Below are positions 15,147 to 36,177 of a stretch of DNA of 64,000 bases, in pieces. Where the stretch lies: NCBI GenBank assembly GCA_029551395.1, contig JAKPFN010000014.1, forward strand, positions 319 through 64,318. The letters are read 5' to 3'. The notes below the pieces were generated by a model. It did no database searches. It was not told where the DNA came from and saw nothing but the letters and a program-made list of their open reading frames with translations. How positions within the stretch are numbered: position 1 is the first letter of the stretch; the number at the start of each line of letters is the position of its first letter. Both the position numbers and the translations under genes were made by a program. This stretch comes from Armatimonadota bacterium (GTDB lineage: Bacteria; Armatimonadota; UBA5829; DTLH01).

Positions 15147-15803
15147 GTGACCAATGGGTTTATCTATGATTTCGGCATAAGCAATGAAGAATTGCTTAGC
15201 CGATGCAAAGAGAACGACGAGTCTGCACTTCGCGAGTTGCTGCGCAGGCATGAGAAGCCTGTGTACGGCCTTTTATATCGGATGCTCGGGAACCACGAGG
15301 ATGCCGAAGAAGCCCTGGCAGATGTCTTCGTTAAAGTCTGGAGAGCTGCAGGAAGCTTCCGAGGCACAGCGAAGTTCACTACGTGGTTATACCGCATTGC
15401 AGGCAATACTGCTCGGGATGTGCTGAGGTCACGCAAGGCCAGACCGGAAATTGCAATCGAGGACGATATTTTAACAGAGACCGACTTGGTCGGTACAGCA
15501 GCAGTTGATCCTGAAACAACCGTGATCAACGCAGATGAAGTTGCCAGAATCGAGCTGGCAATGCAGAAACTGACACCTGAAGATCGGCTTCTGGTTCACC
15601 TATATCATATACAGGAGTTGGACCTTGAAGAGATTAACAGGATAACCGGTATAAACAGGTCGAACTTAAAAGTGAAACTTTTCAGGGCAAGGCAAAAGTT
15701 GAGAACTCACCTGGAGAGTCTTGACCAGGAGAAAAATAATGAACTGCAACCAGATACAACCGAATCTATTGGACTACAACCGGGGTCTGCTGAATCAGCG
15801 TGA
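15147..15803 (+). CDS. ECF (group IV) RNA polymerase sigma factor
   Basis: 218 aa with a GTG start after SD 'agagga'. Region 2 ('LLRRHEKPVYGLLYRMLGNHEDAEEALADVFVKVW') and region 4 ('LDLEEINRITGINRSNLKVKLFRARQKL'). Confidence 0.85.
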   Translation: MTNGFIYDFGISNEELLSRCKENDESALRELLRRHEKPVYGLLYRMLGNHEDAEEALADVFVKVWRAAGSFRGTAKFTTWLYRIAGNTARDVLRSRKARPEIAIEDDILTETDLVGTAAVDPETTVINADEVARIELAMQKLTPEDRLLVHLYHIQELDLEEINRITGINRSNLKVKLFRARQKLRTHLESLDQEKNNELQPDTTESIGLQPGSAESA

Positions 15804-16203
15804 GGCTGCTGCTGTTCGGGCACACCTCAACGTATGCCCGGAGTGCCGTGCGGTGATGGATGCAGAAATTAAACTTGCGGATAGACTTTCTGCAGCACCA
15901 GCAATAGAGCCGCAATCTGATGTGTGGACGCGCGTGGAAGCTAAAATCAGCACGCACAGGCACAAAAGGTCTGTCTTTGACCTGTTCTTTGCTGGCACTG
16001 CCAGAAAATTAGCGACGGCTGTGACTGCTCTCACTGTCCTGATTGCGGTAATGATAGCCATGTATGAGCCGCCTGCGCCTCCTTCTCAAAAGGAAAGCAT
16101 TAACCAGGCTATCGTTATGATGCAGGTCCAACCGGTCGAACCAGCAGCATCCGTTGGAGATACTACAGACGAAATGATGAAGGTGCTAGAAAATGCACTT
16201 TAA
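15739..16203 (+). CDS. Membrane-anchored zf-HC2 anti-sigma factor
   Basis: Internal ATG at 15739 after SD 'aggag'. 'HLNVCPECRAV' gives an H-x3-C-x2-C zinc motif. A single TM segment, 'LATAVTALTVLIAVMIAMY'. Overlaps the 3' end of the sigma gene. Confidence 0.6.
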   Translation: MNCNQIQPNLLDYNRGLLNQREAAAVRAHLNVCPECRAVMDAEIKLADRLSAAPAIEPQSDVWTRVEAKISTHRHKRSVFDLFFAGTARKLATAVTALTVLIAVMIAMYEPPAPPSQKESINQAIVMMQVQPVEPAASVGDTTDEMMKVLENAL

Positions 16204-16990
16204 TAAAAAACCAGGAAAAATATTTAATCCGGCTGCATTAATCCTGATACTGTTTGCTGTGCTTATGCTGGGCTTTTCAGCAGCTCCTACTCAGGCAAAA
16301 GGCTCAAAAGGCAGACAGGAGATTAATCTGAACAAAGAACAGAGGGACAGACTTCAACGCCACATCGAACAAAACAAAGGTGAAGTGGCTGATGTCAGAC
16401 GGCAGATTCAGGCTGCTCGCTCAGACCTGTCTCAGCAGCTTCGCCAGTATGATGTTGACGAACGCAAAGTCCAGCAGACCATCCGCCGGATCAACGACCT
16501 GCAGACCAGACTTCAGCTAATCCATCTTGAAAATCAGGTCAAGCTGCGCGATATCCTGACCAAAGAGCAGTTTGCCGACCTTCGCGAAGCCGTTGGCAGC
16601 CGAGGAATGGATGGAGACGAAGTTCACGCATGGCCAGAAAGAGACGGCCCACACGCAAGAAACGTTCAGAACCTGGACCTATCAGAACAGCAGCAGGATC
16701 GGATAAACAAGCTGTTTCAACGATCCACTGAATCAATGAACGTACTCATACGCAAGGCCAAAGGCGATGCTGGCAGTCTTCGAGAGCTTTATCTGAGCTA
16801 CAGCCTGGATACAAAACGTGCTAAGGAGATTATCAACCGGCTAAGCAATACCAGGTTGGAAATCTTGAAAACGATGGTGGACCGTCAGGTTGAACTGCGG
16901 AATATCTTGACCAAGAAGCAGTTTGAAGCGCTGGCAAAAAGTATGCCTGGGCATGGCGGTGGATCGGGTAAAGGCCGCGGACGAAGGTAG
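16193..16990 (+). CDS. Periplasmic Spy/CpxP-family (LTXXQ) protein with a duplicated domain
   Basis: Signal peptide 'ILILFAVLMLGFSAAPTQA'. Two LTXXQ motifs ('ILTKEQF', 'ILTKKQF'). Gly-rich basic C-terminus. Start overlaps the anti-sigma stop. Confidence 0.6.
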   Translation: MHFNKKPGKIFNPAALILILFAVLMLGFSAAPTQAKGSKGRQEINLNKEQRDRLQRHIEQNKGEVADVRRQIQAARSDLSQQLRQYDVDERKVQQTIRRINDLQTRLQLIHLENQVKLRDILTKEQFADLREAVGSRGMDGDEVHAWPERDGPHARNVQNLDLSEQQQDRINKLFQRSTESMNVLIRKAKGDAGSLRELYLSYSLDTKRAKEIINRLSNTRLEILKTMVDRQVELRNILTKKQFEALAKSMPGHGGGSGKGRGRR

Positions 16991-20782: not shown

Positions 20783-21385
20783 TTATTTTCTTACAAGTCC
20801 AAAGTCGCCATCTGTCATGGTGAGAGAAAACTGCACACCACACATTCGGCATCTGGACTCGGCACCCGGTGTTGGATTAGCGCCAAACGAAACCGTCCAT
20901 CCGCAGACTGGGCAGAAGAATGCTGTCTCGTGTGTCTTTTCTTCAATGCCTTTAATCAAGCTGCGAAGACCGTTGACATGACCACGCTCGGCTCTGGCAA
21001 GCTCAAGAAACAGCTCTTTTACTTGCTCATCAGACGCCTGTGCAGCAAATCCTGAGTATATCTTTACAGCCTCAGACTCAAACTCAAAATCTGCTCTGAG
21101 CATAGCCAGATTGGTCTTCTGCCCAAAAATCTGATCTCCCGTAAAAATCATCTGCTCCAAAGTCGGTCCTGGAAACGTTTCGGCAACCTTCGGATCACCC
21201 TTGTAACGATCAATCAGCTTGATCAAATCCCTTTCATGCCCGTTTTCATTCCGCATCAGACCTTGAAGAAGCGCAAGGATAAGCGGATCTGATGTTTTAT
21301 TCTGGTGATCCTGATACCGCGCGACGGCAGCAATCTCCAGGTTGAGCGATGTATATAAGTTCTGTAGATCAACGGATGTGGACAT
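20783..21385 (-). CDS. Rubrerythrin-like ferritin-fold protein with a C-terminal zinc-ribbon (rubredoxin-like) domain
   Basis: Track ORF 20783..21451. The start is reassigned to the ATG at 21385, after SD 'aagagga'. Paired E-x-x-H motifs ('NENGHERD', 'RAERGHVNG') and a C-terminal 'CPVCG...CRMCG'. Confidence 0.55.
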   Translation of the reverse strand: MSTSVDLQNLYTSLNLEIAAVARYQDHQNKTSDPLILALLQGLMRNENGHERDLIKLIDRYKGDPKVAETFPGPTLEQMIFTGDQIFGQKTNLAMLRADFEFESEAVKIYSGFAAQASDEQVKELFLELARAERGHVNGLRSLIKGIEEKTHETAFFCPVCGWTVSFGANPTPGAESRCRMCGVQFSLTMTDGDFGLVRK

Positions 21386-21443
21386 TGTCTTAGTTTCCTC
21401 TTTTCTCAATAAAAAGATATGAATAAAATCTGCCTGAGCAACA

Positions 21444-22727
21444 TCAGGCAAAACTGGCTAAAGTAGCTTCAAATCCAGGATAGGAAGTCCTGATGCACTC
21501 GGTATCATGGACTACAGTTTCTCCTGAAGCTGCCATACCTGCAACAGCACAGGACATTGCTATACGATGGTCTCCGTGAGACTGGCACTCAGTTCCTGTA
21601 AGCTCTGACCTGCCGTAGATAACCATACCATCCGGCAGCTCATCTATACTTACCCCAAATTTGGCAAGTTCAACAGCTACCGTAGCAATTCTATCCGTTT
21701 CTTTAACCCGAAGTTCCTTTGCATCGGTGATTACAGTATCTCCCTCAGCAACTGCAGCAGCTACAGCCAGAATCGGCACTTCATCTATCAGCCTCGGGAT
21801 AAGCTCACCCTTGATTTCCGTTCCATGAAGGCTGCTTGTCCTCACAACAATGTCAGCCGCAGACTCTCCTGCTTCTTCGCGGATATTCTCCAGAACAAGG
21901 TTTGCCCCCATTGCCCGAAGAGCATCGATTATCCCTGTCCTTGTGGGATTTATCCCGACATTGGTGATTGTAAGCTCTGAATTCGGGATTATGAGACCTG
22001 CAACCATCCAATATGCAGCCGAGGATATATCGCCAGGAACCTGCACCGACTGTGCGTTAAGCTGCGGCCTTCCAACTACGGTTGCGGTCGTCCTTTCGCT
22101 TCTTACATCTGCCCCAAAGCCTTTAAGCATCAGTTCTGTGTGGTTTCTGGAAAGCGTGGGTTCGGTTACTGATGTCTCGCCTTCAGCAAAAAGTCCTGCC
22201 AGAAGGATTGCCGACTTCACCTGAGCGCTTGCTACGGGAGATTGATAGCTGATAGGCCAAAGCTCGCCGCCGATGATGCTCAGAGGCGCCTTATCTCCGC
22301 CTTCCCGGCCAAAAATCATCGCTCCCATTTCTTTTAACGGCTCTACTACCCGTCCCATAGGCCGCCTGCGGATAGACTCGTCTCCTGTTATGACTGAATA
22401 GAACGATTGACCAGCCAGCACTCCGGTTATAAGCCTGATTCCGGTTCCTGAGTTGCCGACATCTATAACATCTCCCGGTTCCCGAAGCCCATCAAGCCCA
22501 TTTCCGTGGATTTCCAACACATCAGGAAACGGCCAGGAGATGGAAACTCCAAGACGCATAAACGCCCGAGCCGTATTGAGGCAGTCTTCACTTCTGAGGA
22601 ATCCTGTAACCTGTGTTGTTCCCTTAGCAAGCGAACCCAGGATAACCGCCCGGTGGCTGATAGACTTATCCCCCGGTACGCTGACCTCTCCCACAAGCCC
22701 TATTGTACTTTTAACTTTCAATTCCAT
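21444..22727 (-). CDS. aroA: 3-phosphoshikimate 1-carboxyvinyltransferase (EPSP synthase)
   Basis: 427 aa. 'LVGEVSVPGDKSISHRAVILGSLA' and 'NSGTGIRL' signatures. Confidence 0.9.
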   Translation of the reverse strand: MELKVKSTIGLVGEVSVPGDKSISHRAVILGSLAKGTTQVTGFLRSEDCLNTARAFMRLGVSISWPFPDVLEIHGNGLDGLREPGDVIDVGNSGTGIRLITGVLAGQSFYSVITGDESIRRRPMGRVVEPLKEMGAMIFGREGGDKAPLSIIGGELWPISYQSPVASAQVKSAILLAGLFAEGETSVTEPTLSRNHTELMLKGFGADVRSERTTATVVGRPQLNAQSVQVPGDISSAAYWMVAGLIIPNSELTITNVGINPTRTGIIDALRAMGANLVLENIREEAGESAADIVVRTSSLHGTEIKGELIPRLIDEVPILAVAAAVAEGDTVITDAKELRVKETDRIATVAVELAKFGVSIDELPDGMVIYGRSELTGTECQSHGDHRIAMSCAVAGMAASGETVVHDTECIRTSYPGFEATLASFA

Positions 22728-22765
22728 TATCTAGCTCAAAACGGCTGCCTGAAACTTGCTGACTC

Positions 22766-23662
22766 TCATTCAGTCTCGGAATCATCAGGAAAATCTTTCG
22801 CCCAACTATCTCTAATCATCTTGCCTTCTGAGAAGTGCCGCTTGACCACTTTAGCATCGCCGGACTCTATTCCCATTCTGACTTCGGTAAGCAGATCCTC
22901 AAGCTTCTTCAATGCAGAACTGATAGCCTCCTTGCTGGAAAGGCATATATCTACCCATATCTCAGGAGGACTGGAAGCTACCCTCGTCATATCCCTAAAA
23001 CTGCCTGCTGCAAGCTCCAAAACCTGCCCTGACTTTGCTTGTTCCTCTGCTGCAAGCCTCAGGATTGCCGATGCAAGAACGTGAGGCACGTGGCTAATTA
23101 TCGCCACACTTCGGTCATGTTGTTCCGGGTCCATCAGAATAACATTGGAACCAAGCCCTTCAGCAAACCGAACAAGTGTATTCAACGCCATTACATCCGT
23201 CGAAGAGGTTGGAGTGATAACATAGGTAGCATTCAGAAACAGGTAAGGCAGCGCTGCTTCGACTCCATCGGCCTCTGATCCAGCCATTGGATGCCCACCG
23301 ACAAAGAACCTGCCTTCTGGAAGCGCCTCATCTGCCCCGCGAGTAATCTCTGCCTTGGTGCTCCCTACATCAGTTACGATTGCTCCTTCTTTAAGGACTG
23401 GGGCAATTGCTTTGATGGTTGGCACAATAGCAAGGACCGGAGTGCAGATGAATACAATGTCCGCCTCTCGCACTCCGGCAAGAAGATCAGTAGTATAGGC
23501 ATCGACTGCGGCCAGTTCCTGGGCACGATGAAGCTTGCGAGCATCGCGGCCTATCCCGATGACCTTTCTGGCCAATCCTCTGGCCTTCGCTGCCATCCCG
23601 ATTGACCCGCCAATCAGACCAACGCCTATTATGGAGATTGTGTCTACTACTCGCTCGCCCAT
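22766..23662 (-). CDS. tyrA: Prephenate/arogenate dehydrogenase
   Basis: 298 aa. N-terminal Rossmann '[12 protein letters not shown]' and the 'GGHPMAGSE' catalytic motif. Confidence 0.85.
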
Positions 23663-23709
23663 AGTCTTACAGATCGAGGAATGACTGATAAATCGTTAAA
23701 TCCTGATCC

Positions 23710-24732
23710 TTATACAAACCTTCCCACAGCTCGCGCACACAGCCCAATTTCCGTCATAAGAGTGCTGAACATATCCGGCGTAAGTGATTGCGCTCCATCT
23801 TTAAGCGCTTTTTCCGGGCAGGGATGGACTTCTACCATTAAAACATCAGCGCCTGCAACAACCGCTGCCCTTGCTACCGGAGGAACCAGATGCACTCGGC
23901 CAGTGCCATGACTTGGATCTGCGACTATAGGCAAGTGTGTCAGCCCGAAAAGCGCTGGAATGGCGCTTACATCAAAAGTATTCCGGGTGAATGTCTCAAA
24001 CGTGCGTATTCCTCGCTCGCAGAGCATAATATTGTAGTTGCCGCGATTAGCTATATACTCAGCCGCCTGCAGCCACTCCTCAATAGTCGATGCCATACCA
24101 CGCTTTAGCATCACAGGCTTATTGGAATTCCCAATCTCCCTCAAAAGCGAGAAATTGGTCATATTTCTGGTGCCTACCTGTAGAATATCCGCATACTCTG
24201 AGACCAACTCGACATCCCTGGTGTCCATTACCTCGGTAATAAACGGCAGTCCTGTAACTTCCCGCGCTGCTGCAAGAATCTTGAGGGCATCTTCTCCAAG
24301 TCCGTGAAAACTGTAAGGAGATGTGCTTGGTTTGAACGCGCCACCTCGTAGTATCGATGCACCTGCTGCTTTTACTGCCTTGGCTGTCTCGATAGTCTGC
24401 TCTTCGCTCTCAACCGAGCATGGCCCGGCCATTACAACAATCTTTTGACCACCTATATCGACTCCTCCAACCCTGATTATCGACTTATCCGGATGGAACT
24501 CGCGGCTGACTATTTTATACGGCTTCAGGATTGGAATAACACGCTCAACATAGTCAAATGACGAGAGCTGTTCCGCAATAATCGCCTTATCCTGGTCTGG
24601 TGCGCCAATAGCTCCGACTATCGTTTTTTCTACGCCTTTGGATATGTGGACTCCATAACCACGATCCTCCAGGTTTTGGACTAACTCTTGAAGGTCGCCC
24701 TCCGTAGCTGCTGGAGTCAATAGGATGATCAT
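23710..24732 (-). CDS. aroF: 3-deoxy-7-phosphoheptulonate (DAHP) synthase, type I-beta, with an N-terminal regulatory domain
   Basis: 340 aa with a ~75-aa N-terminal ferredoxin-like domain and then a KDO8P/DAHP-synthase core ('MAGPCSVES', '[15 protein letters not shown]', 'ADPSHG'). Confidence 0.85.
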
Positions 24733-24791
24733 AAACTTCCCTTTCCAAGAACACGTGCGGCAAAGATTCTCATCTCAAAAATCCTGCCATT

Positions 24792-25904
24792 TTACCCTTT
24801 ACTACTTATACTCCCTAAAACTTCTTCAAGTGCCTTGATGCACCGTTCATTATCCTGCGGTAGTCCTGTGGAGATGCGGATATGGGTCGGCCAACCAAAA
24901 ACATCTCCCGTGCGGATGATAACCCCGCGCTTGAGCAGTTCAACAAACACCTGCTTGCTGTCTTGTCCAACATCCACCCACACGAAATTAGCCTCGCTTG
25001 GCACGTATTTCAATCCAAGCCGGTCGAACTGGCTGTAGAAATAATTCTTGCCATCACTATTCATCATCCTGCTTTTGATGACCTGGTCCTGGTCTTGAAG
25101 ACTGGCAATTGCAGCCACCTGGGCAATAGAACCTACATTAAACGGCAGTCTGATACGTTCTATTAAGCTTATCAACTCCGGTCTTGCAATAGCATAACCC
25201 AGCCTCAGTCCGGCAAGGCCGTAAATCTTCGAAAAAGTCCTGAGCAGGATGACATTTCTGCCTTCCAATACCCACTTTAACCCGTTTGGATAGTCCGAGC
25301 GTTCAATATACTCATAATACGCTTCATCCAGAACAAGAATCGCACGCTCAGGCAGAGCATCAAGAATCCTCTCAGCATCTTTATGAGGCAGCATATTCCC
25401 TGTCGGATTGTTAGGGTTGGCAATAAAAACCAGCTTGGTATGCTCATTAAATTGGTCAATCAACGCATCTACGTCATAACTGAAGTCCTCATGTAGAGGA
25501 ACCATACAGCATGTGCAATTATTCGAAGTTGCCGCACCTTCATACTGGCTGAATGTCGGATCGCTTTGAATTACGCAATCGCCTTCCTCAAGGAAAACAT
25601 TGCCAATCTCTCTTATCAGCTCATCCGATCCTGCGCCAAATGAAAGGTAATCCGGCTGCACCCCAAGATGACTTGCAAGCGCATTACGCAGCGTAAAGCA
25701 ACTGCCATCTGGATACAGCGCAACATTATCGCAGGCTTTCTTCATAGCCTCGATAGCTTTCGGGCTGGCCCCAAGCGGATTTTCGTTCGAAGCCAGCTTC
25801 ACAATATCCGTCAACCCATATTCCCTCTGGACTTCCTCTATCGGTTTGCCAGGAATATAAGGCTTGAGTCTTAAAACGCATTCTTTACAAAGTCTTGGAG
25901 ACAC
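24792..25904 (-). CDS. hisC: Histidinol-phosphate aminotransferase
   Basis: Track ORF runs to 25946 with a TTG. A likelier start is the GTG at 25904, after 'gaggtg'. 'KLASNENPLG', the class-II aminotransferase fold, and the PLP lysine in 'SKIYGLAGLRLGY'. Confidence 0.85.
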   Translation of the reverse strand: MSPRLCKECVLRLKPYIPGKPIEEVQREYGLTDIVKLASNENPLGASPKAIEAMKKACDNVALYPDGSCFTLRNALASHLGVQPDYLSFGAGSDELIREIGNVFLEEGDCVIQSDPTFSQYEGAATSNNCTCCMVPLHEDFSYDVDALIDQFNEHTKLVFIANPNNPTGNMLPHKDAERILDALPERAILVLDEAYYEYIERSDYPNGLKWVLEGRNVILLRTFSKIYGLAGLRLGYAIARPELISLIERIRLPFNVGSIAQVAAIASLQDQDQVIKSRMMNSDGKNYFYSQFDRLGLKYVPSEANFVWVDVGQDSKQVFVELLKRGVIIRTGDVFGWPTHIRISTGLPQDNERCIKALEEVLGSISSKG

Positions 25905-26143
25905 GTGATTATTCACCTCATCTGTTATAAATGAAGTATAGCACAAAGGTGGGAATCAATAGAAACTCGTAAGGATTAAGTTACTATTAAGGCTGTTTGA
26001 GATACATGGATTAGTCATCCCATACTGCCGGAAACGGGGAGACGAGGAAAGAAAGTAAAAAAACAAAAATACAGAGAACAGACAAAATCTCAATCTCTTT
26101 TTTGCTTTCTCACTTTCGAGCTTTCCTCGTCTATCTCTATCCT

Positions 26144-28288
26144 TCACGCTGAATAGAATCCACTCAGATAATGTTTACAGATGAACTGCTCTACACGCCA
26201 GGTAGACTTGCCATTTTCTGTAAACTCATAAACGCCATTAGCCCGAGTCATAAAGCCGAGTTCCACCATGTAGCGCCTTGTTGCGCAGTAATCAGAACAG
26301 ACCTGGGCAATACCCTCAGTAACATCGCGCTCGCTGTAATTTTTCATCTCAGACAGGCCAAAACGCATCACTGCATCAGGCGATATATTCGCTACCGGAT
26401 TTACCTTCCGGCGCTTCTCAGCCAGTCTCATATCAACATCCGATAGCTTAGGCTCTCTGCGTCGAATTCCTCCGAAAACCGCTTTAGCTGCAATTTTCTG
26501 CAGCTTTGCATCACCATTTCGCATCAATTCCTGCAGTGCGACCTGCGAGCTTACCGTTCCCATCTCACCAAGCGCTGCTGTCGCTGCTTCGCGGACTTGC
26601 CTTTCCTTACTGTTTGTCATCTCGATTAAAAGATGCTCAGCCTGCCCTATTTGCAACCTGCCAAGTGCTGTTATAGCTACAGCCTTTTCCTGCCCTTTGC
26701 TGTTTTGTACAAGGTTTATCAACTCTTCAGCAGATGCAATATCGCCAATCTCCGATAGCGCGAAGACCGCCGCAACCCTGACTGCAGTCTCAGTATCCGA
26801 AAGAAAACCTCTTATAAGGCCCGAGTAATCACCTGCTTGCAGATGTCCCAGTACTCTAACAGCCTGGCTGCGAAGCTCTAAAGGTCCATGTTCCGCAATA
26901 GATGCAGCCTCCTTCGCTAAATCATCTAACAGCCCGCCGCCGATGTCTTCCACACGAAGCGGAGACCACTTTTCACGAGTACGCAGGTCGTTCAGAAACT
27001 GCTCCCGGCTGACTTCATACATTGTTCCTGGACAAAGCGACCTTGCTATATACTCAAGCCCCAGCAGACCGGCAGCCTGTTGCTTCACATCGTTGCTTTT
27101 CAGCATCTTCAGCAACTCATCACCAAAACGCGCTCCAGTTCTGACCAATGCCTGCAGAACCCATGAAGACTGGCTCTCCTTACTACCGTATGTTGCAATA
27201 AAACGCTCCTTCAGAATAGGAAACGCTGCATCAGCATAACACATCAATGTATTCACAAAGAGTACTGCAGGGCAGGAGTGTCTACAAGCCTGAATCATAT
27301 CCAGCAGTATTCCGGCCTTTGCCTGTTCATCCGCAGAATGCATGACGAGCCTGTCCAGAAGCATGTAAGCATCTCGTGACGCCATATTCGACATACCATC
27401 TCTAGGATCAACAATCCCGCACCTGGAAGCATACTGCACCAGGATATCCCGAGCACGCGATGCCCTTGGCTCCTGTCCAGAAAAACAGCAGTCCAGCACA
27501 ATATCTATTGCTTCACTTCCAAGGTGAGGCAGCAGAATGGCAAGATTTCCGATTGCATCTTCTGCTGTTACCATCAACTCTATCAAACGCTCTGGAGACT
27601 TTCTGAGGACTATACTTAACCTCTCCGGCGCATTTGGTTCATCGTTGAACATACGCAAAAGAACTGCAATCTCAGCTTGTACTACTTCTTTGAACCTGTC
27701 ATCCGGGATGGCAGGGATTTCTTGATGTTCGGTCATTTGCTCCATTACCTCTTTCAGTGCTTGACGCGCACGATGCAGGCGGCTCATAACCGTACCCTTG
27801 GATATCTCAAGGAACCTGGAAATCTCGTCATAGGACAACTCTTCATAATAATGCAGGACCAGGACAAGGCGGTGGGACGCTGACAGCGATGCAAGACCAT
27901 AGGACATCCGGGCATAAATAGACCGGTCTTCCATATCATCTTCAGCCGCAGCAATCTGTTCTTCTTCCAGCTCAACAAACTGATGGCTGTTGCGTCGGTA
28001 CCACATCCTGCAGACGTTGAGTGTCAGAGCCTTCAACCAGCCTGCGAACCTCTCCGGGTTGCGAAGCTGCCCCAGCTTCAGGTAGGCTTCCACAAATGAG
28101 TCATGCGCTAACTCCTCAGCATCCGGCACATTGCCGGCCATATTGAGGCATACACGATAAACCATTGTGTAGTACCGGTCCATAAGCAGGCTGAACGCCT
28201 CTTTGTCTCCCTCCAACACTGCTGAAATTAATTTACTATCGTCCACCTTATCTGCTCCTGCACAATGTTGCATTGAGCACCACTGCAT
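26144..28288 (-). CDS. ECF-type sigma factor fused to a long C-terminal extension containing HEAT/PBS-lyase-like repeats
   Basis: Track ORF 26144..28339, of which ~715 aa are used. The N-terminal ~200 aa have sigma region 2 ('DKEAFSLLMDRYYTMVYRVCLNMAG...DSFVEAYLKL') and region 4 ('LSYDEISRFLEISKGTVMSRLHRARQALK'). Residues ~560-650 carry repeats 'AVRVAAVFALSEIGD', 'AVAITALGRLQ' and 'VREAATAALGEMG'. Confidence 0.7.
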   Translation of the reverse strand: MQWCSMQHCAGADKVDDSKLISAVLEGDKEAFSLLMDRYYTMVYRVCLNMAGNVPDAEELAHDSFVEAYLKLGQLRNPERFAGWLKALTLNVCRMWYRRNSHQFVELEEEQIAAAEDDMEDRSIYARMSYGLASLSASHRLVLVLHYYEELSYDEISRFLEISKGTVMSRLHRARQALKEVMEQMTEHQEIPAIPDDRFKEVVQAEIAVLLRMFNDEPNAPERLSIVLRKSPERLIELMVTAEDAIGNLAILLPHLGSEAIDIVLDCCFSGQEPRASRARDILVQYASRCGIVDPRDGMSNMASRDAYMLLDRLVMHSADEQAKAGILLDMIQACRHSCPAVLFVNTLMCYADAAFPILKERFIATYGSKESQSSWVLQALVRTGARFGDELLKMLKSNDVKQQAAGLLGLEYIARSLCPGTMYEVSREQFLNDLRTREKWSPLRVEDIGGGLLDDLAKEAASIAEHGPLELRSQAVRVLGHLQAGDYSGLIRGFLSDTETAVRVAAVFALSEIGDIASAEELINLVQNSKGQEKAVAITALGRLQIGQAEHLLIEMTNSKERQVREAATAALGEMGTVSSQVALQELMRNGDAKLQKIAAKAVFGGIRRREPKLSDVDMRLAEKRRKVNPVANISPDAVMRFGLSEMKNYSERDVTEGIAQVCSDYCATRRYMVELGFMTRANGVYEFTENGKSTWRVEQFICKHYLSGFYSA

Positions 28289-28537
28289 TTTTGCGCTTCC
28301 AAATAGAGGATGCAGCAACTTGCCAAATATTCCATTCATCGGGGAAATTTGTTCTTTATCAGAAAAAAACTCCGCTGTCTTGAATCACTACCCATTGTAT
28401 CCTATGTCGTCCAGCTATTACAGCATCCTGGCTTATTCTGTGTGTTGTCATGCTCTACAGTGGGTATGTTAACTGTAAAGCCTGCAAAATTAAATCAACG
28501 CAGCTTCCGAAAAATGATTGTGCATCAGGAGGTCAAT

Positions 28538-29689
28538 ATGATTCGCGCAGCGATATTTCCAAATAAATACATCCAGGGCCGCAATGCTATCAGAGAAATA
28601 GCAAATTTCATTGAACCAATCGGCGAGTCTGCCGTTTTACTTGTGGACAGAAACGTCCGCAGCTTCATCGAACCTGCAATAATGGATTCTGCCCAAACAA
28701 AAGGCATTAATATCCAGTCCATTGAGTTTGGCGGAGAATGTACATGGGATGAGGTAAACCGAATAGCCGATGTAGCCAGGTCCGTTGATGCACAGATGAT
28801 TATAGGCGCAGGTGGAGGTAAGACTCTCGATACAGCAAAGGCTGCAGCAATAAAATCTGACCGAAGAATGATAGTCCTGCCTACTACAGCTTCCACTGAC
28901 GCTCCAACAAGCGCTCTTTCAGTCATTTATACGGCTCAGGGAGAATTTCAGGAGTATTTCTTCCTGCCAAGAAACCCGGATGTAGTACTTGTAGACACTC
29001 AAATCGTCGCCAATGCACCTGCAAGGTTTCTGTCAGCAGGTATGGGAGATGCTCTTGCCACCTGGTTTGAGGCAGACACTGCTTCCAGGGCTGGTGCTAA
29101 GAACATGGCCGGAGGTTTTACTACCAGTACCGGGCTGACACTGGCTCGACTGTGCTTCGACACATTGATTGAATACGGCCCTTCAGCACTGAAGGCTGCG
29201 GAACAACATGCAATAACTCCAGCACTCGAAAGGGTTGTTGAAGCAAATACGCTGCTTTCAGGTCTTGGCTTTGAAAGCGGTGGACTGGCAGCAGCCCACT
29301 CGATCCACAACGGATTGACGGAACTCAAGCAGACGCATGACTACCTGCACGGCGAAAAGGTCGCATTTGGAACACTGACTCAGCTTATTCTGGAGGACAG
29401 AAGCCAGGATGAGATAATGACAGTGCTCGCTTTCATGACCGCAGTCAGCCTTCCTGCCTGTTTTGAAGGGATAGGTCTGAAAAACGTCTCAAGAGACGAC
29501 CTCCGACGCGCAGCCGAAGCAGCAACTGCAGAAGGTGAAACAATCCACAACTTGCCGTTTGAAGTTAGCGTAGATGATGTGGTAGACGCAATGATTGCCG
29601 CTGATTCGCTTGGAAGGACCATTCCCGGAGCCTGCGGTTGGCAGGAACGCGAAGAGGAATTGGAAAAAGAACCTGCACCAGCGATGTAA
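28538..29689 (+). CDS. Glycerol dehydrogenase-like iron-containing/zinc alcohol dehydrogenase (GldA family)
   Basis: Start reassigned to the ATG at 28538, after 'caggagg'. 'GAGGGKTLDTAKAAA', the 'VLPTTASTDAPTSALSVIY' block and 'AAHSIHNGL' are typical of GldA/Fe-ADH. Confidence 0.8.
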   Translation: MIRAAIFPNKYIQGRNAIREIANFIEPIGESAVLLVDRNVRSFIEPAIMDSAQTKGINIQSIEFGGECTWDEVNRIADVARSVDAQMIIGAGGGKTLDTAKAAAIKSDRRMIVLPTTASTDAPTSALSVIYTAQGEFQEYFFLPRNPDVVLVDTQIVANAPARFLSAGMGDALATWFEADTASRAGAKNMAGGFTTSTGLTLARLCFDTLIEYGPSALKAAEQHAITPALERVVEANTLLSGLGFESGGLAAAHSIHNGLTELKQTHDYLHGEKVAFGTLTQLILEDRSQDEIMTVLAFMTAVSLPACFEGIGLKNVSRDDLRRAAEAATAEGETIHNLPFEVSVDDVVDAMIAADSLGRTIPGACGWQEREEELEKEPAPAM

Positions 29690-29778: not shown

Positions 29779-32595
29779 CTACTTCACAACCTTCACTTTT
29801 ATGACAACCTGATCGCTTGTCCTCAGCCCATCGATAACAAAGAACCTGTACTCTATCTCCTTTGGTTCATTCGGAGCTGTAGCTTTCAGTATTGGGTCTT
29901 TAGAGAGATCAGCTCTCAGCCAATGTCCATTCTCAGACCATCTGTATATCAGTGGCTGGCCTTCAGGATCGTAGCTCTTTGATCCGTCGATAACATACTC
30001 TTCGCCGCACTTCACTACAATCTCTTCTGGAGCAATAGCCACCGGTTTCAAGTTCTTCTCCTTGATGGCATCCGGGATAACAGGCTTCACTACAGGCGTG
30101 ATGCCTGTCGATGGCTGCAGACTTGTCCGCTTGGTGAATATACCACGAATCCTCTCACCTCTGAAGAATGCTTCGTTCATCTCAGTAAGCGGCAGCCAGT
30201 GGAATTCAGCCTGGTCTCCGCTGACAATCTTCAGAAGGATCAGCCCTTCAACGCTCCAAACATTCGGAGTGAAGGCAGTGTCAGTCTTTGCGGTTCCATA
30301 GGGGTTCCAGACTCCAATCGCACCATCTACGTCATCTGTGTCCGGCGAGTCCCAGGTCGAGTCAGTCTCTCTGGGAATGATAAACCGTCCGTCCTTGTCG
30401 GTATTGCCCATGAACTTCGGTCTATCGGCAAAATATTTGGTCCCAGCATCCTGTGCGCCGGTCTGTGACACATGGTATACATAAACAGCCGCGCCTGAAA
30501 GCGGCTCATCGTTAACATCATATATCTGCAGAACATGCCCAAGGCTTGGAATCAACCTGCCTTGAGTTCCCCAGAACTTCTCTCCCCGATACCCGGCAAA
30601 ATACTGCACTTGACCTGCATGTGCCGGATGCAGCCACATGTGGCAGTAGTCCATAAGCGGGGTATATCCGCCGCCGCAGGGAATAGTCTGCGCTGAAGAG
30701 CACATTACGCTGCCATGCGACACATCCGGTAGAAGCTCTCCACCCGCATAATACTCACCATTCTCATCTTTCAGAAAGATGTTGTCTACCTTTACCGGAT
30801 AGCCATACAGGTCTGGCAGTGCTATGCAGCAGTGACCAAACTCATGAACCAGCCCAGATGATATAACCAATTGATTCCCTGACTTGTTGTCGGCAACAGG
30901 GAAACCTCCGTCATAAAGGTGTGCTTCAAGGTCGTAAGGCTCCTTACTGAGGTCATCCGACGAAAGCGCATAGAACGCATCGGTGCGGATGGCATCTTTA
31001 ACACCAACAGGGCTTGTAGTCGGGTAGACTGCTTCCTGAAGCATCAAAGTGACTCTGTGAGCCTGTGCGTTGAACCAGTCATAGTAGCTGAACGAACCGA
31101 CCATATTGATTTTCTTAGCATCATAGTCGTCATCCAGTACGCATTGCTTATACCCCCAGCGCATAGCACGGGCAGTATTCAACTCGCAGCGTTCGTTGTT
31201 GGCTTCACAGATTTCCCCTATCTTCTTATCAGGGTCTACTGTTACTTTAATCCATACCGGATCATTGGGCCAGGTATAGTTGAAAGTCAATTTGATCTCT
31301 TCCCGCGGCTTCATTGACTTCTCAATGACCTGCTCTTGAGTCTCGACTGGTTTCTCATCCTTATCCAGCCGGAAATTACCGTTTTTATCAGGAATAAGCT
31401 GGAACCGGACTACTGCACCTGCAGGAACGTCTCTATAGCCAAAGTTGGCAATATGCGCCACAGCCTGCACCCGCTCTCCTGGAGCCGGCCACCATTTAGG
31501 ACCATTAGATGAGTAACGAGGAAGCCGCGAAACACAATACAAGTCCAAATCAGGCTGTTCAGGAGAGATAACTTCAATGTTATAGGCGTCTTTCATCCCT
31601 CTGAACTCGGCAGTGAGCTTGCACTTGCCGACTGACTTGCCAGTTACAATACCGTCTTTGTCTACGGTGGCAACTTTCTCATCAGATGTGGACCACTTGA
31701 TAAACGGTTTTGCGTCAAAATCAGACCAGTTGCCATATCCCGCGATATTCTCAGTGATGCGAACCATCTGTCCATCCAGCTTAGCCCGCATGCCAAACTG
31801 CTTGGGACATCCGTTGACGACTCTCTTGTCAGACGGCACATCACACGCATCAGGATCTATCTTTATGGCAGTAAACGGAGCTGTCGCGAAATAATCCCGG
31901 TAAACAACGCTTATCATATCACGAGACAGCTCAGTTTTAGCCTCTTTGCGGATGATAAGTTCGTCCATAGCCGCATCTGAGGTCTCATCGCCGATGTAAA
32001 GCCGCTTATCATCCATCTTCTGAACATCAAAAAACTGGTTGCCGCTTGCAATCGGGCCATCGACAGCAACCTTATCGATCCAAAGCGGCATACCAAGCGG
32101 CTTATTATCTTTACTGAACCACACGATAGCGATATGGTGCCACTGTCCGGCCTTCCAGTCAGAAACATCAGCACGGGATGATGTAACTTTCTTTGGAGAG
32201 GCCATAACATACCGGAGGAATCCCTTTTCAGACTTCTCCACAAGCAGTCCGTTCTTATTCATATCACCAACACGGAGGATAACATGCCTCTTACCATCAT
32301 TCCCATTCCAGTTGGGCTTTATCCAAAAACTGATGTAACCAGATTCCTGCGAAAGATTGACTCCTTCGATGGCTGCAGGTCTTGAAAGCAAGACTCCTTT
32401 TCCCGCAGTGCCTGGAACTTCAGGAAGTCCGGCTGCAGGACTGCTCATTCTAGCGCTATTATCAAAAGCAGCATCACTGAACCAACTAAGCAAGGTTTCT
32501 GCCGACTCCAAATCTGCACAAAACAGCGGAGCAGCAGCCAACAACCCGAGCAGTACAAATAATACAATTAACCTCAAAATGCGGCTCCTTTCCAT
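29779..32595 (-). CDS. Large secreted multidomain zinc metalloprotease-like protein, paralog 1 (LamG-like + BIG2 + M6/InhA-like zincin + C-terminal Ig/PKD-like)
   Basis: 938 aa with a signal peptide 'LIVLFVLLGLLAAAPLFCA'. LamG/ConA-like block ('FWIKPNWNGNDG...QWHHIAIVW'). BIG2 ('VATVDKDGIVTGKSVGKCKLTAEF'). Zincin motif 'LVHEFGHCCIALPDLYGYP'. C-terminal 'SKSYDPEGQPLIYRW'. Confidence 0.6.
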   Translation of the reverse strand: MERSRILRLIVLFVLLGLLAAAPLFCADLESAETLLSWFSDAAFDNSARMSSPAAGLPEVPGTAGKGVLLSRPAAIEGVNLSQESGYISFWIKPNWNGNDGKRHVILRVGDMNKNGLLVEKSEKGFLRYVMASPKKVTSSRADVSDWKAGQWHHIAIVWFSKDNKPLGMPLWIDKVAVDGPIASGNQFFDVQKMDDKRLYIGDETSDAAMDELIIRKEAKTELSRDMISVVYRDYFATAPFTAIKIDPDACDVPSDKRVVNGCPKQFGMRAKLDGQMVRITENIAGYGNWSDFDAKPFIKWSTSDEKVATVDKDGIVTGKSVGKCKLTAEFRGMKDAYNIEVISPEQPDLDLYCVSRLPRYSSNGPKWWPAPGERVQAVAHIANFGYRDVPAGAVVRFQLIPDKNGNFRLDKDEKPVETQEQVIEKSMKPREEIKLTFNYTWPNDPVWIKVTVDPDKKIGEICEANNERCELNTARAMRWGYKQCVLDDDYDAKKINMVGSFSYYDWFNAQAHRVTLMLQEAVYPTTSPVGVKDAIRTDAFYALSSDDLSKEPYDLEAHLYDGGFPVADNKSGNQLVISSGLVHEFGHCCIALPDLYGYPVKVDNIFLKDENGEYYAGGELLPDVSHGSVMCSSAQTIPCGGGYTPLMDYCHMWLHPAHAGQVQYFAGYRGEKFWGTQGRLIPSLGHVLQIYDVNDEPLSGAAVYVYHVSQTGAQDAGTKYFADRPKFMGNTDKDGRFIIPRETDSTWDSPDTDDVDGAIGVWNPYGTAKTDTAFTPNVWSVEGLILLKIVSGDQAEFHWLPLTEMNEAFFRGERIRGIFTKRTSLQPSTGITPVVKPVIPDAIKEKNLKPVAIAPEEIVVKCGEEYVIDGSKSYDPEGQPLIYRWSENGHWLRADLSKDPILKATAPNEPKEIEYRFFVIDGLRTSDQVVIKVKVVK

Positions 32596-33366: not shown

Positions 33367-36177
33367 TTACTCTACTACATTTACCTTGATGCTTACCGGC
33401 TCGCTCACGCGCAGGCCATCGATTACATACAGCCTGTACCTAACCTCTCCCGGCTTGCCAGGAGCCTTGATAGTGCAGGTGGAATCCGTAGATAGATCAG
33501 GCTTCAGCCATCCTGCCTGCTCTCCCCATCTGTAGGTAAGAGGCTGGCCTTCCGGATCGTAGCTCTTTGACCCATCAAGCGTGAACTCCTCGTTGCACTT
33601 CACTGTCAGTTCCTGCGGGGTTACAACAGCAACCGGCTTCAGATTGGTCTTCCTGATCGATTCAGGAATCTCAGGCCTTACAACCCGCGTTATACCGTTT
33701 GATGGTTGCAAGCTGGTCCTTATGTGGTAGACTCCCCTGTTCTTGTTGCCTTTAAAGAATTGCTCATTGAACTCCGTAAGAGACATCCAGTAGAACTCAG
33801 TCTGATTACCGCTCACAATCTTAATGAGCAACAGCCCTTCCACGGTCCAGACATTGGGGGTGAACGCAGTGTCCGTCTTCACCCGGCCAAACGGGTTCCA
33901 GACGCTGATTGAACCATCTACCTCGTCCGTATCAGGATCATCCCATGACCGATCCGTTTCATTTGGGAACCGCCAGCGGCCGTCTTTATCCGTATTGCCG
34001 ACGAACTTCGGCCTGTCCGGGAAATACTTAGTGCCCGCATCCTGGAGGGATGTGTTAATAACGTGATACACATATACCGCAGCACCGGAAAGAGGTTGAT
34101 CGTTGATGTCATAAATCTTCAACCAGTTCTCGAACGCAGGAATCAACCTGCCCTGAATTCCCCAAAACCTGTTGCCTCTGTAACCGGCAAAGTACTGAAT
34201 CTCTCCAGCATGTGCCGGATGCAGCCACATATGGCAGTGATTCATAAGCGAATCATAACTCACGCCACATGGCACGCCGTTAGCTGATGAGAGCGGCACG
34301 ATGTTGTCTCTATCTCGAATGAGCGGCATCAGTTCGCTGCCTGCATACGGTTTACCATTCTCATCCTTCAAGAGCACCGACCAGTAGTTCACCGGATAAC
34401 CGTAAAGGTCCGGCAGAGCCACACAGGTATGCCCGAACTCATGCAGGATTGCCGCATCTATCGCCATCAGGTCGATAGGCTCTCTGACAGGGAATCCTCC
34501 ATCATAGTAAGGACCTTCTTTTTCCCAAGGCTCATCTTCCCACCTGGTATCTCCAAGCTTCAGTGCATATGTTTTATCGTTCCGCAGTGTTTCCCGCACC
34601 CCATCAGGGCTTGTGGTAGGCAATACGGTCTGCCGCAGCAGTGCCTCGAACCTGTAGAGCTGACCATTGATCCAGTCATACTCGCTGAACGATCCTACAT
34701 GATTGATCTTCCGATTGTTGTAGAAATCCTCGAGTTGCGCCGGATCGTAACCCATGTGAAGCGCGCGGGCTATGTTCATCTCACAGCGCTCGTTGTTAGC
34801 TTCGCAAATCTCTGCAATCTTGTTTGCCGGGTCTACGGTCACGCGAACCCATATAGGATCATCAGACCATGTCCAGTCAAACTCTACAGATTCCTCTTCC
34901 CTGGGCTTCAACGCTTTGGAGATGACCTTGCGCTGGGTAGCGATGGGTGTTTCGCTTCTGTCCAGCCTTAAATTGTTGTTGGAGTCTGGAATCAGCTCAA
35001 AAACAACCTCAACTCCCGCCGGAGCAGTCTTGTAACCAAAGTTGATAATCCGCGCAACGAACCTGACCTTCTCACCAGGAGATGGTCTGTCCTTGTCATC
35101 GCCGTCCTTGTACTTAGGGAATCTCTCCACATACACCAGATCCAGGTCCGGCTGCTCGATTGGAATAACCTCAAGCTGATAGGTTGCCTTCATCCCTCTG
35201 AACTCGGCTGTTAAGGTGCATTTCCCGAGAGATTTACCTGTCACCCGTCCATTGGCATTCACGGTAGCAATCTTCGGGTCGGATGTAGTCCATTTGATAA
35301 ACGGCTTTGCATCGAATTCTGACCATTGGCCGTAACGAACGGCAAAATCGGTGACTCTGGTCATCACCCCGTTCATCTCAGCCATCAGACCATACTGCTT
35401 CTCGCATCCAATGACCACACGTGGATCCATTGGGCCATACATCGGTCTCAAGTCTATTGCAACCCTGGTATAAGGCGCAGAGCGGAAGAAATCCCGATAT
35501 ACCGTGGCAATCTGCCCATGAGGACCTTCAGTATCGAACCTGTCCCGCATGATCAGCTCATCGATCACACAGTCTGACGTAGCATCTCCGATAATTACCC
35601 GCTTATCTGCCATCTTGTCTGGATTCATGAACTCGCTTCCGCCAAAGATTGGACCAGCAACAGCCCATTTGTCTATCCAGAGCGGCAGTCCGAGCGGCTT
35701 ACCTCTTACTGACATCCATGCTATTGCAACATGGTGCCACTGTCCGGCTTTCCAGTTAGAGACATCAGCACGAGCAGCAGTAACTTTCGTCGGGCTAGCC
35801 ATCACATAGCGCAGCATGCCTTTGTCCGACTTCTCAACCAAAAGACCATTCGTAGCCGGGTCACCGATTGTAAGTATTCGGTGAGTCTTTCCATCATTTC
35901 CATTCCAGTTCGGCTTGATCCAGAACGTTATAAGCCCGTTGTCCTGCTTGAGAAGCGGATTTTCGATGGCTGCAGACCTACTGAGTACAACTCCTTTGCC
36001 TGCTGTGCCTGGAGCTTCAGGAAGTCCGGCAACAGGCTTCGCTGTGCGGACACTCTTCGGCACGGTTGAATCGGTAAACCAGGCTACAACCGCCTCAGTC
36101 GTGTCCTGCGCAGTCGCGAGAGATGGCGCAAGAAGCACTGCAGATACCAGTACTATAGACAACACTAATTTCAACAA
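33367..36177 (-). CDS. Large secreted multidomain zinc metalloprotease-like protein, paralog 2
   Basis: 936 aa. Same architecture as 29779..32595 at roughly 50-55% identity by eye. Signal peptide, 'FWIKPNWNGNDG', and the zincin motif 'ILHEFGHTCVALPDLYGYP'. Confidence 0.6.
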   Translation of the reverse strand: MLKLVLSIVLVSAVLLAPSLATAQDTTEAVVAWFTDSTVPKSVRTAKPVAGLPEAPGTAGKGVVLSRSAAIENPLLKQDNGLITFWIKPNWNGNDGKTHRILTIGDPATNGLLVEKSDKGMLRYVMASPTKVTAARADVSNWKAGQWHHVAIAWMSVRGKPLGLPLWIDKWAVAGPIFGGSEFMNPDKMADKRVIIGDATSDCVIDELIMRDRFDTEGPHGQIATVYRDFFRSAPYTRVAIDLRPMYGPMDPRVVIGCEKQYGLMAEMNGVMTRVTDFAVRYGQWSEFDAKPFIKWTTSDPKIATVNANGRVTGKSLGKCTLTAEFRGMKATYQLEVIPIEQPDLDLVYVERFPKYKDGDDKDRPSPGEKVRFVARIINFGYKTAPAGVEVVFELIPDSNNNLRLDRSETPIATQRKVISKALKPREEESVEFDWTWSDDPIWVRVTVDPANKIAEICEANNERCEMNIARALHMGYDPAQLEDFYNNRKINHVGSFSEYDWINGQLYRFEALLRQTVLPTTSPDGVRETLRNDKTYALKLGDTRWEDEPWEKEGPYYDGGFPVREPIDLMAIDAAILHEFGHTCVALPDLYGYPVNYWSVLLKDENGKPYAGSELMPLIRDRDNIVPLSSANGVPCGVSYDSLMNHCHMWLHPAHAGEIQYFAGYRGNRFWGIQGRLIPAFENWLKIYDINDQPLSGAAVYVYHVINTSLQDAGTKYFPDRPKFVGNTDKDGRWRFPNETDRSWDDPDTDEVDGSISVWNPFGRVKTDTAFTPNVWTVEGLLLIKIVSGNQTEFYWMSLTEFNEQFFKGNKNRGVYHIRTSLQPSNGITRVVRPEIPESIRKTNLKPVAVVTPQELTVKCNEEFTLDGSKSYDPEGQPLTYRWGEQAGWLKPDLSTDSTCTIKAPGKPGEVRYRLYVIDGLRVSEPVSIKVNVVE

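Follow-up and report, generated by a model that had tools for sequence, protein, structure and literature searches.

How is a sigma factor held in check when no anti-sigma factor is encoded beside it and its own polypeptide runs on for some 500 residues past the promoter-recognition domains? The question is raised by a gene on the minus strand of a 64,000-nucleotide stretch of an Armatimonadota bacterium (GenBank assembly GCA_029551395.1, contig JAKPFN010000014.1, positions 319 to 64,318), the whole of which is referred to here as the window. Sigma factors of the extracytoplasmic function (ECF) type that carry fused regulatory extensions are 'one-component systems'; few types of extension have been described and fewer are understood. 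They are valued as orthogonal switches in synthetic biology because no partner protein is needed. We propose, with a probability of about 60%, that the gene product is a one-component cytoplasmic ECF sigma factor in which the tail, an alpha-solenoid ending in a putative winged helix, replaces a separate anti-sigma factor.

Domain organization of the sigma factor

The gene lies in an uninterrupted 731-codon open reading frame (ORF; 26144..28339, minus strand), and a first-pass annotation of the window was right that this frame passes from the sigma module into the tail without a stop. Residues are numbered throughout from the first codon of this mechanical ORF, in which V32 is the corrected start discussed below. 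Pfam matches on the 731-residue translation were judged against the curated cut-offs (gathering scores). The N-terminal part contains sigma-70 region 2 (σ2; residues 52-118, 27986..28186, minus strand), matched by PF04542 with 38.1 bits against a cut-off of 24 (E = 1.3e-9), and sigma-70 region 4 (σ4; residues 149-197, 27749..27895, minus strand), matched both by PF08281 (residues 149-195, 50.9 bits versus 25.7, E = 1.2e-13) and by PF04545 (49.1 bits versus 24.1, E = 4e-13). Of the NCBIfam models only the generic ECF one, TIGR02937 (sigma70-ECF), passes, with 81 bits where 42.9 are required; none of the named equivalogs or subfamilies does so, SigY, SigW, SigM, SigE and RpoE all lying far below, and the best subfamily, SigY PRK09638, fails with 96.7 bits against 194. 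The best sequence matches of the N-terminus in the Protein Data Bank (PDB) are SigW and SigE. Only region 2 and region 4 models match, with no region 1.1 or region 3, and residues 120-139 form the disordered σ2-σ4 linker. Among 82 aligned members of the family described below, L77, H79, W101, N108, R111 and R115 of σ2 are invariant or nearly so, and G182, T183, S186, R187 and R190 in the recognition helix of σ4 are invariant (82/82). On these matches we take the gene product to be a genuine ECF-type (group 4) sigma factor, in line with the region 2 plus region 4 module read earlier from the letters alone; region 4, on which that reading hung, is clearly matched by Pfam.

The sigma module leads directly into a long helical tail. 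A highly conserved helix, DDRFKEVVQAEIAVLL, follows immediately after σ4 and opens a proximal alpha-solenoid (residues 213-486, 26882..27703, minus strand) that is all-helical in the AlphaFold2 model, with a predicted local distance difference test (pLDDT) score mostly of 85-98. E223 within that helix and L376 further on are invariant (82/82), and P249 is invariant or nearly so; a Pfam search of residues 200-490 found nothing, even at E 10. The distal solenoid (residues 487-622, 26474..26881, minus strand) consists of 4-5 HEAT repeats of the PBS-lyase type, identified by Pfam, by alignment to alphaRep proteins and by Foldseek, where the first-pass annotation had counted three or more. HEAT_2 (PF13646, 58.2 bits versus 27.7, E = 1.1e-15), HEAT_PBS (PF03130, 35.6 bits versus 20.9, E = 8e-9) and HEAT match above their cut-offs at residues 520-619, and residues 487-620 align to 4-5 consecutive repeats of designed alphaRep proteins among the PDB sequences (E = 9e-31). 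The helices are continuous from residue 213 to 622 in the model (~410 residues), and this stretch is assigned to the ARM/HEAT alpha-solenoids because Foldseek matches it to designed armadillo proteins, alphaRep, PP2A-A and beta-catenin. The fused extension of ~500 residues that had been noticed is thus present, and it is conserved among homologs. A basic linker of lower pLDDT (residues 632-653, LSDVDMRLAEKRRKVNPVANIS; 26381..26446, minus strand), in which a K/R-x-R-G-x-A-x-P pattern is conserved, connects the solenoid to the last domain; the net charge of residues 626-653 is +5.

The C-terminal domain (residues 654-728, 26156..26380, minus strand) had been described as a unique Cys-containing domain. 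It is instead DUF2087 of Pfam (PF09860), which scores 40.9 bits against a cut-off of 22.4 on the whole protein (residues 663-705, profile positions 24-68 of 69) and 44 bits on the isolated domain, and which is also found in the homologs. A model of the isolated domain (pLDDT 89.9) has the order H-H-H-beta-beta-H (H23-30, H39-47, H53-62, E66-69, E72-75, H77-98), that is, a winged helix-turn-helix with a long C-terminal helix. Its top 50 Foldseek neighbours in the PDB are all winged-helix DNA-binding proteins; the best is Sso10a (TM 0.57/0.62, rmsd 3.0 Å over 80 residues), and further neighbours include Sso10a-2, the AspA-DNA complex, Rv0880, CouR, SarZ, MarR, PadR and ZitR. The E-values are 5.6e-3 or worse, so this is an assignment of fold and not of homology, and searches of the PDB with the domain sequence and with its profile returned nothing significant. 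The C-terminal DUF2087 domain is confidently predicted to adopt a winged-helix fold. Nucleic-acid binding has been proposed for DUF2087 in the literature, and the predicted fold is in keeping with it; BtmL, a DUF2087 protein of the bottromycin cluster, modulates the expression of a specific gene (PMC7113386). D683, R688, R689, R699, G710, W714 and E717 of the domain are invariant (82/82), and the three arginines together with the basic linker favour DNA binding by the putative winged helix. Of the tail cysteines that the first-pass annotation had quoted only C681 is conserved (76/82), C685 being Cys in 17/82 and C721 in 8/82. With a single conserved cysteine in the tail, the analogy that had been drawn to Cys-rich ECF extensions fails, and a Cys-rich metal sensor was rejected as a reading of the C-terminal domain.

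Conservation of the family

The architecture is shared by a family. A search of 5.8 billion proteins returned ~50 full-length relatives from many samples (33-70% identity, ~700 aa) with the same set of Pfam domains, and the family alignment holds at least 82 full-length homologs with the same single-ORF architecture, in which invariant residues are spread along the whole tail and across the junction between sigma module and tail. An exhaustive profile search with the extension only (residues 208-731) gave at least 57 cluster representatives (50% identity) of 680-735 aa, in all of which the match begins at residue ~175-185 and covers the extension over its full length. Giant HEAT-repeat proteins make up the remaining strong matches to this profile, aligned over profile positions ~250-450, the HEAT part, only; since proteins outside the family match nothing but the HEAT part, the proximal ~260 residues of the tail are family-specific. 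Members come mostly from uncultivated lineages; those with names belong to metagenome-assembled genomes labelled Armatimonadota, Desulfobacterales or 'bacterium' and are annotated as 'sigma-70 family RNA polymerase sigma factor'. Public data include a protein identical to the one studied here (P0001), whose cluster has 10 members. A shorter relative of 504 aa with sigma domains only is labelled Candidatus Latescibacterota.

A few variants depart from this architecture. Three candidates for free-standing extension proteins, P0010, P0078 and P0096, were discarded as contig-edge truncations. The fourth, P0129 (542 aa; JGI sample 3300072015, 2188-bp contig), is an extension-only gene that does not lie at a contig edge. 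A partial ORF of 36 residues, on the same strand, ends 228 nt before it begins; the arrangement may reflect either a true split into sigma and tail genes or a frameshift. In P0103 (895 aa) the same solenoid and DUF2087 module (profile positions 40-523) stands behind a different N-terminal region of ~430 aa, which contains extra HEAT_2 repeats and ~290 residues with no Pfam match, and no sigma domains; this protein suggests that the tail is a portable module. P0024 (405 aa) joins the sigma part and ~170 residues of the proximal tail straight to DUF2087 and lacks the HEAT repeats and the remainder of the solenoid; it is a single sequence and reflects an internal deletion or a misassembly.

Absence of an anti-sigma gene and of a membrane anchor

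No anti-sigma gene adjoins the sigma gene in the window or in 8 independent homolog contexts. The neighbours in the window are a divergent, upstream Fe-ADH gene and, downstream, genes for an aminotransferase and a DAHP synthase, which agrees with the earlier remark that an adjacent anti-sigma gene is lacking. No neighbour is common to the window and the homolog loci L001, L002, L084, L085, L086, L089, L090 and L091, and the neighbours differ completely even between proteins that are 64-68% identical.

No anti-sigma domain was found within the protein either, as zf-HC2, RskA and FecR gave no Pfam match. No convincing transmembrane segment was detected: the Kyte-Doolittle maximum over 19 residues is 1.63, and it falls inside solenoid helices with a pLDDT of ~97. 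The protein is therefore soluble and cytoplasmic.

The full-length AlphaFold2 model, built from a 49-sequence alignment, has a mean pLDDT of 85.5 and a predicted template modelling score (pTM) of 0.84, and is disordered only at residues 1-30 (which are not translated), 120-139 and 626-629. Because the solenoid makes up only ~56% of the chain, a pTM of this height suggests that σ2, σ4 and the winged helix are confidently placed relative to it. In Foldseek comparisons the sigma part of the model lies nearest to anti-sigma-bound SigW (5wur/5wuq; TMt 0.60-0.64, rmsd 8.2), followed by AlgU-MucA (TMt 0.48) and SigE bound to RNA polymerase (9m9e_F; TMt 0.39, rmsd 22.8). The pTM and the SigW superposition fit, and do not prove, a compact, sequestered-like arrangement of σ2 and σ4.

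A conserved promoter and the start of the gene

Conserved upstream motifs are the standard basis for predicting the target promoters of ECF sigma factors, because these proteins usually regulate their own genes (PMC7826278). Upstream of the gene a -35 element GGAATA (28328..28333, minus strand) and a -10 element GCATC (28309..28313, minus strand), separated by a 14-nt spacer (28314..28327), form a conserved ECF-type promoter. Searched for exactly, GGAATA-N14/15-GCATC has a single match in the 64-kb window (28333..28309, strand of the gene), where 0.11 are expected by chance. It also occurs once in each of 9 family loci (8 independent), just upstream of the family gene and on its strand, and not once in 82 other loci (~0.86 Mb), 80 of which are unrelated ECF sigma loci. 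These 80 controls are ordinary ECF loci matching residues ~20-250, taken from the scan of a genome collection with the full-length alignment. The motif persists at 33-35% protein identity (L085 and L086), where the flanking DNA is otherwise unalignable, and its geometry is that of ECF promoters, with a GGAA(C/T)-type -35 and a short -10 some 15-17 nt downstream. Its place upstream of every family gene with upstream DNA suggests positive autoregulation, and the sigma factor studied here probably uses this motif. A scan of the window allowing one mismatch gave chance-level matches, all of them intragenic, so that no other member of the regulon is visible in the window.

The core promoter is flanked by further conserved sequence. 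A leader or initial-transcribed element, TTGGAAGCGCA (28292..28302, minus strand), stands out as conserved columns in a 7-promoter alignment; it reads GTGGAA[A/G]CGCAC in close homologs and lies 6-8 nt downstream of the -10. On the other side, a T-rich ATTTYC patch is found 9-16 nt upstream of the -35 (~28337..28350 in the window, minus strand). Both are shared by the closer homologs (L001, L002, L084, L089, L090 and L091) and are degenerate in L085 and L086. The leader has no Rfam match. The flanking elements could be targets of the putative winged helix.

The position of the promoter also corrects the 5′ boundary of the gene. The ATG at 28339, with which the first-pass annotation began the gene, is not its start, as codons 1-31 hold the conserved promoter and the leader. 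The corrected coding sequence of 700 aa (26144..28246, minus strand) runs from V32, a GTG at 28246..28244, to a TGA stop at 26146..26144. The family consensus N-terminus (M-x-D-x-x-L-x-x-A-V) aligns at V32, a Shine-Dalgarno sequence AGGAG (28259..28255, minus strand) precedes the GTG by an 8-nt spacer, and the closest homologs have a GTG or TTG start, 7-9 nt after an equally placed GGAG. Residues 1-30 are disordered in the AlphaFold2 model, with a pLDDT below 50. Also too long is the plus-strand mechanical ORF 28310..29689, which extends over the 5′ end of the sigma ORF; the true start of this glycerol-dehydrogenase-like Fe-ADH is the ATG at 28538 behind a GGAGG (plus strand), and the divergent intergenic region between the two genes measures ~290 bp. 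In the homolog P0013 (GCA_054604175.1, locus L084) the called start, 6001, falls within the conserved promoter motif at 5987-6012, so its annotated N-terminus is probably too long as well.

Proposed mechanism and alternative explanations

The proposed mechanism builds on the architecture and its conservation, the lack of a partner gene and of a membrane segment, and the conserved promoter. From these we infer that the tail docks on the sigma core, that it governs sigma activity (being inhibitory, or required as in ECF42) and that it answers to a cue. The sigma part would bind core RNA polymerase and recognise GGAATA-N14/15-GCATC promoters, one of which would drive its own gene and give positive autoregulation. 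In the resting state the solenoid, starting from the invariant helix after σ4, would pack on σ2 and σ4 and hold them compact, like an anti-sigma-bound sigma factor. A cytoplasmic cue, either a protein or ligand on the HEAT surface or a nucleic acid on the winged helix, would alter this packing and thereby set the activity of the sigma factor.

Several points weigh against this proposal. The docking of the tail on σ2 and σ4 is read from the pTM and from one Foldseek comparison of poor rmsd, and mutual information corrected by average product (82 sequences, Meff 67) reveals only two small clusters, residues 318-320 with 655/693 and residues 76/114 with 221/231. No likeness to an anti-sigma domain could be detected in the proximal extension, which Pfam leaves unmatched, and none of the 4 candidates for an extension-only protein beside a separate sigma gene shows an ancestral pair. 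No second copy of the promoter is present in the window or in the homolog flanks. Finally, a predicted winged helix with invariant arginines suits DNA binding at least as well as sensing.

This last point leads to the main rival, which we consider possible although unlikely, namely that the tail is a fused activator or second reader of DNA. The solenoid would hold DUF2087 upstream of σ4, where it would bind a second promoter element, the ATTTYC patch or the GTGGAA[A/G]CGCAC leader being candidates, and the tail would stabilise or gate the holoenzyme without sequestering σ2 and σ4. Such a role accords with a set of top 50 structural neighbours that consists entirely of winged-helix DNA-binding proteins, with invariant arginines (82/82) at the start of the recognition helix (R688/R689) and in the wing (R699), with the basic linker (+5) that precedes the domain, and with what has been proposed for DUF2087 and found for BtmL (PMC7113386); the extra conserved sequence on both sides of the core promoter would supply sites. 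However, Foldseek E-values of 5.6e-3 or worse give a fold class only, the DUF2087 domain has a net charge of about -1, and the flanking elements are conserved among the closer homologs only and degenerate in L085 and L086. Contacts between proteins, too, can be made by winged helices, and dimerisation domains of O-methyltransferases are among the matches. A second reader would, moreover, leave the 410-residue solenoid unexplained. Reading of DNA and replacement of an anti-sigma factor are not mutually exclusive. In an improbable combination of the two, three roles usually divided among different proteins would meet in one polypeptide: those of sigma factor, of anti-sigma factor (the solenoid, clamping σ2 and σ4) and of a second, sequence- or structure-specific reader of nucleic acids (the DUF2087 winged helix). 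The clamp would be freed when the winged helix binds either an element near the promoter or a nucleic-acid signal of the cell. Were this so, DNA or RNA would activate the sigma factor in place of an extracytoplasmic cue, which would be a new logic of ECF control, and DUF2087 would have gained its first function.

A further alternative, which we regard as rather improbable, is that the tail serves as a platform for protein interactions, as proposed for the TPR tail of ECF42 and the WD40 tail of ECF57. The solenoid would then be required for activity and not inhibitory, and an unlinked partner would switch the sigma factor. HEAT/ARM solenoids are classical protein-binding scaffolds, as the matches to alphaRep, PP2A-A and beta-catenin recall. 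Outside the family, the sigma cores found to be most similar (33-37% identity across the sigma part) carry other extensions, among them the protein-interaction types WD40 and BNR/Sortilin propellers as well as a peptidase M61-like one. ECF42 needs its TPR extension for activity, and contact with σ4 is predicted for the proximal part of that extension only (PMC8999054). The platform model is weakened because no conserved neighbour that could act as partner occurs in the window or in the 8 homolog contexts, and the high pTM suggests that the surface of the solenoid is already occupied by the protein's own domains.

Very improbable in our view is a redox or metal sensor, modelled on zinc-binding anti-sigma factors or CorE-type sigma factors, in which C64, H79 and C110 of σ2 would join with C681 of DUF2087 in a thiol or metal switch between the tail and σ2. 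All four are near-invariant over the 82 members: C64 (79/82; ~28148-28150, minus strand, as for the others), H79 (81/82; 28103-28105), C110 (74/82; 28010-28012) and C681 (76/82; 26297-26299). In favour, H79 stands where SigW presumably has Gln (region 2.2). Against such a switch, SigW presumably also has Cys at the position of C64, which may thus be a plain core residue; the protein has neither a CxxC, CxC or HxxxCxxC motif nor a zf-HC2 match, its σ2-σ4 linker is free of Cys, and C685 and C721 are not conserved. A frameshift or assembly error joining a sigma gene to a separate HEAT-repeat gene, a caveat that the first-pass annotation had itself raised and for which the unusual ORF length and the possibly split P0129 might speak, is rejected as exceedingly improbable, since 82 or more independent sequences, drawn from many samples and lineages, keep the same single ORF of ~700 aa with invariant residues across the junction, the identical protein is present in public data within a 10-member cluster, and three of the four extension-only proteins are contig-edge truncations.

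Comparison with known ECF groups

Among the modes of ECF regulation, C-terminal extensions rank second in frequency, with 19 groups in the ECF classification 2.0 (PMC7826278), and they correlate with a missing anti-sigma factor (PMC7826278; PMC8999054). The extensions described so far comprise SnoaL-like domains (ECF41, 56, 205, 294 and 295), TPR (ECF42), WD40 (ECF57), Cys-rich tails (ECF238, 287 and 288), DUF1835 (ECF264), multi-transmembrane or fused anti-sigma regions (ECF263, 48, 52 and 53, and IutY) and some short motifs (PMC7826278; PMC8999054). The first-pass annotation did not recognise a HEAT-repeat extension among the characterised groups, and the literature bears this out: 'HEAT', 'winged' and 'solenoid' are absent from a 2022 review of non-canonical ECFs (PMC8999054), HEAT repeat, 'armadillo' and 'DUF2087' are absent from the main text of the ECF classification 2.0 (PMC7826278), and searching full texts for ECF sigma factors that bear a HEAT-repeat or winged-helix extension brought up nothing relevant.

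In working principle the closest relatives of the proposed one-component sigma factor are ECF42, with its soluble alpha-repeat tail, and ECF41, with its fold-back domain. ECF42, exemplified by Sven_0747 of Streptomyces venezuelae and ECF-10 of Pseudomonas putida, shares a soluble, all-alpha repeat tail, the lack of an anti-sigma factor and a proximal extension predicted to contact the sigma core (PMC8999054). It differs in that its tail is ~200 aa of TPR, whereas the protein studied here has a ~410-aa ARM/HEAT solenoid and a winged helix; TPR_19 reaches only 13.9 bits against 25 (E = 0.069), while HEAT_2 passes, and the YCII-related neighbour typical of ECF42 is absent beside the gene. ECF41 (e.g. 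SigJ of M. tuberculosis) follows the same one-component logic with no anti-sigma gene, its fused domain folding back on the region of the σ2/σ4 linker and modulating activity by conformational change. Our protein has no SnoaL match in Pfam at E up to 1, which sets it outside ECF41, 56, 205, 294 and 295, and its extension is 4-5 times longer than that of ECF41 and of another fold.

ECF57, or 'ECF01-Gob' type, from Planctomycetes resembles the family in bearing a very long C-terminal repeat-protein extension on an ECF core. Its WD40 tail, however, is a beta-propeller without DUF2087, whereas the tail described here is an alpha-solenoid; no WD40 match was found, and the model is all-alpha except for the wing hairpin and a short loop. 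The Cys-rich ECF238 (CorE-like, with a CxC in the linker), ECF287 and ECF288 do not accommodate a protein with only C681 conserved in the tail and no Cys in linker residues 120-139, and neither do the types with a fused membrane anti-sigma factor (ECF48, 52 and 53, and IutY), as anti-sigma domain and transmembrane helix are both lacking. DUF2087 regulators of the BtmL type are ~20 kDa proteins with an ArsR-like N-terminus, in contrast to a domain that ends a 700-aa sigma factor. As for the Class I anti-sigma complexes (SigW-RsiW, 5wuq/5wur), the σ2/σ4 arrangement of the model is nearest to their sequestered state (TMt 0.60-0.64), and the same function is proposed for the proximal tail, but the tail has no anti-sigma similarity, zinc motif or membrane anchor and belongs to the same polypeptide as the sigma factor.

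By the published descriptions, which set it apart from the known groups, the ARM/HEAT and DUF2087 tail is thus a probable undescribed type of extension. The ECF Hub may nevertheless already contain these proteins in a small or ungrouped subgroup. Ungrouped ECFs cluster in phyla that are underrepresented (PMC7826278), and the lineages of the family are of this kind.

Other features of the window

The canonical sigma/zf-HC2 pair that had been pointed out at 15.1-16.2 kb is real. It forms part of an ordinary ECF module (15147..16990, plus strand) made up of a sigma gene (15147..15803, regions 2 and 4), an overlapping zf-HC2 anti-sigma gene (15721..16203) and a Metal_resist/LTXXQ (Spy/CpxP-like) gene (16193..16990). 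This second ECF sigma factor of the window shares only 28% identity with the sigma portion of the studied gene. Directly downstream of the latter lies a cluster for aromatic amino-acid biosynthesis (20783..25946, minus strand) encoding a class I/II aminotransferase, a DAHP synthase with a ferredoxin-like domain, a 298-aa ORF and an EPSP synthase, an arrangement that is not kept beside the homologs. A 918-aa HAMP-GAF-SpoIIE (PP2C phosphatase) protein is encoded at 7177..9933 (minus strand), 18 kb from the studied gene; proteins of this organization are typical input components of partner-switching regulation of sigma factors. Two proteins of 938 and 936 aa (29779..32595 and 33367..36177, both minus strand), with a DUF6144 gene between them, gave weak matches only (Laminin_G_3; CARDB and Big_2) and may be paralogous surface proteins.

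Implications

The regulatory hypothesis put forward here is directly testable, because the cognate promoter can be read from comparative data. DUF2087 is found in thousands of putative regulators, for which we know of no established function, and the family ties this domain to the transcription machinery itself. A sigma factor with a second domain of DNA-binding type is unusual. The finding overturns no principle; it extends the known theme of regulatory C-terminal extensions, adding to the ECF sigma factors a large, soluble ARM/HEAT solenoid capped by a putative winged helix, in a family that is spread over poorly studied lineages.

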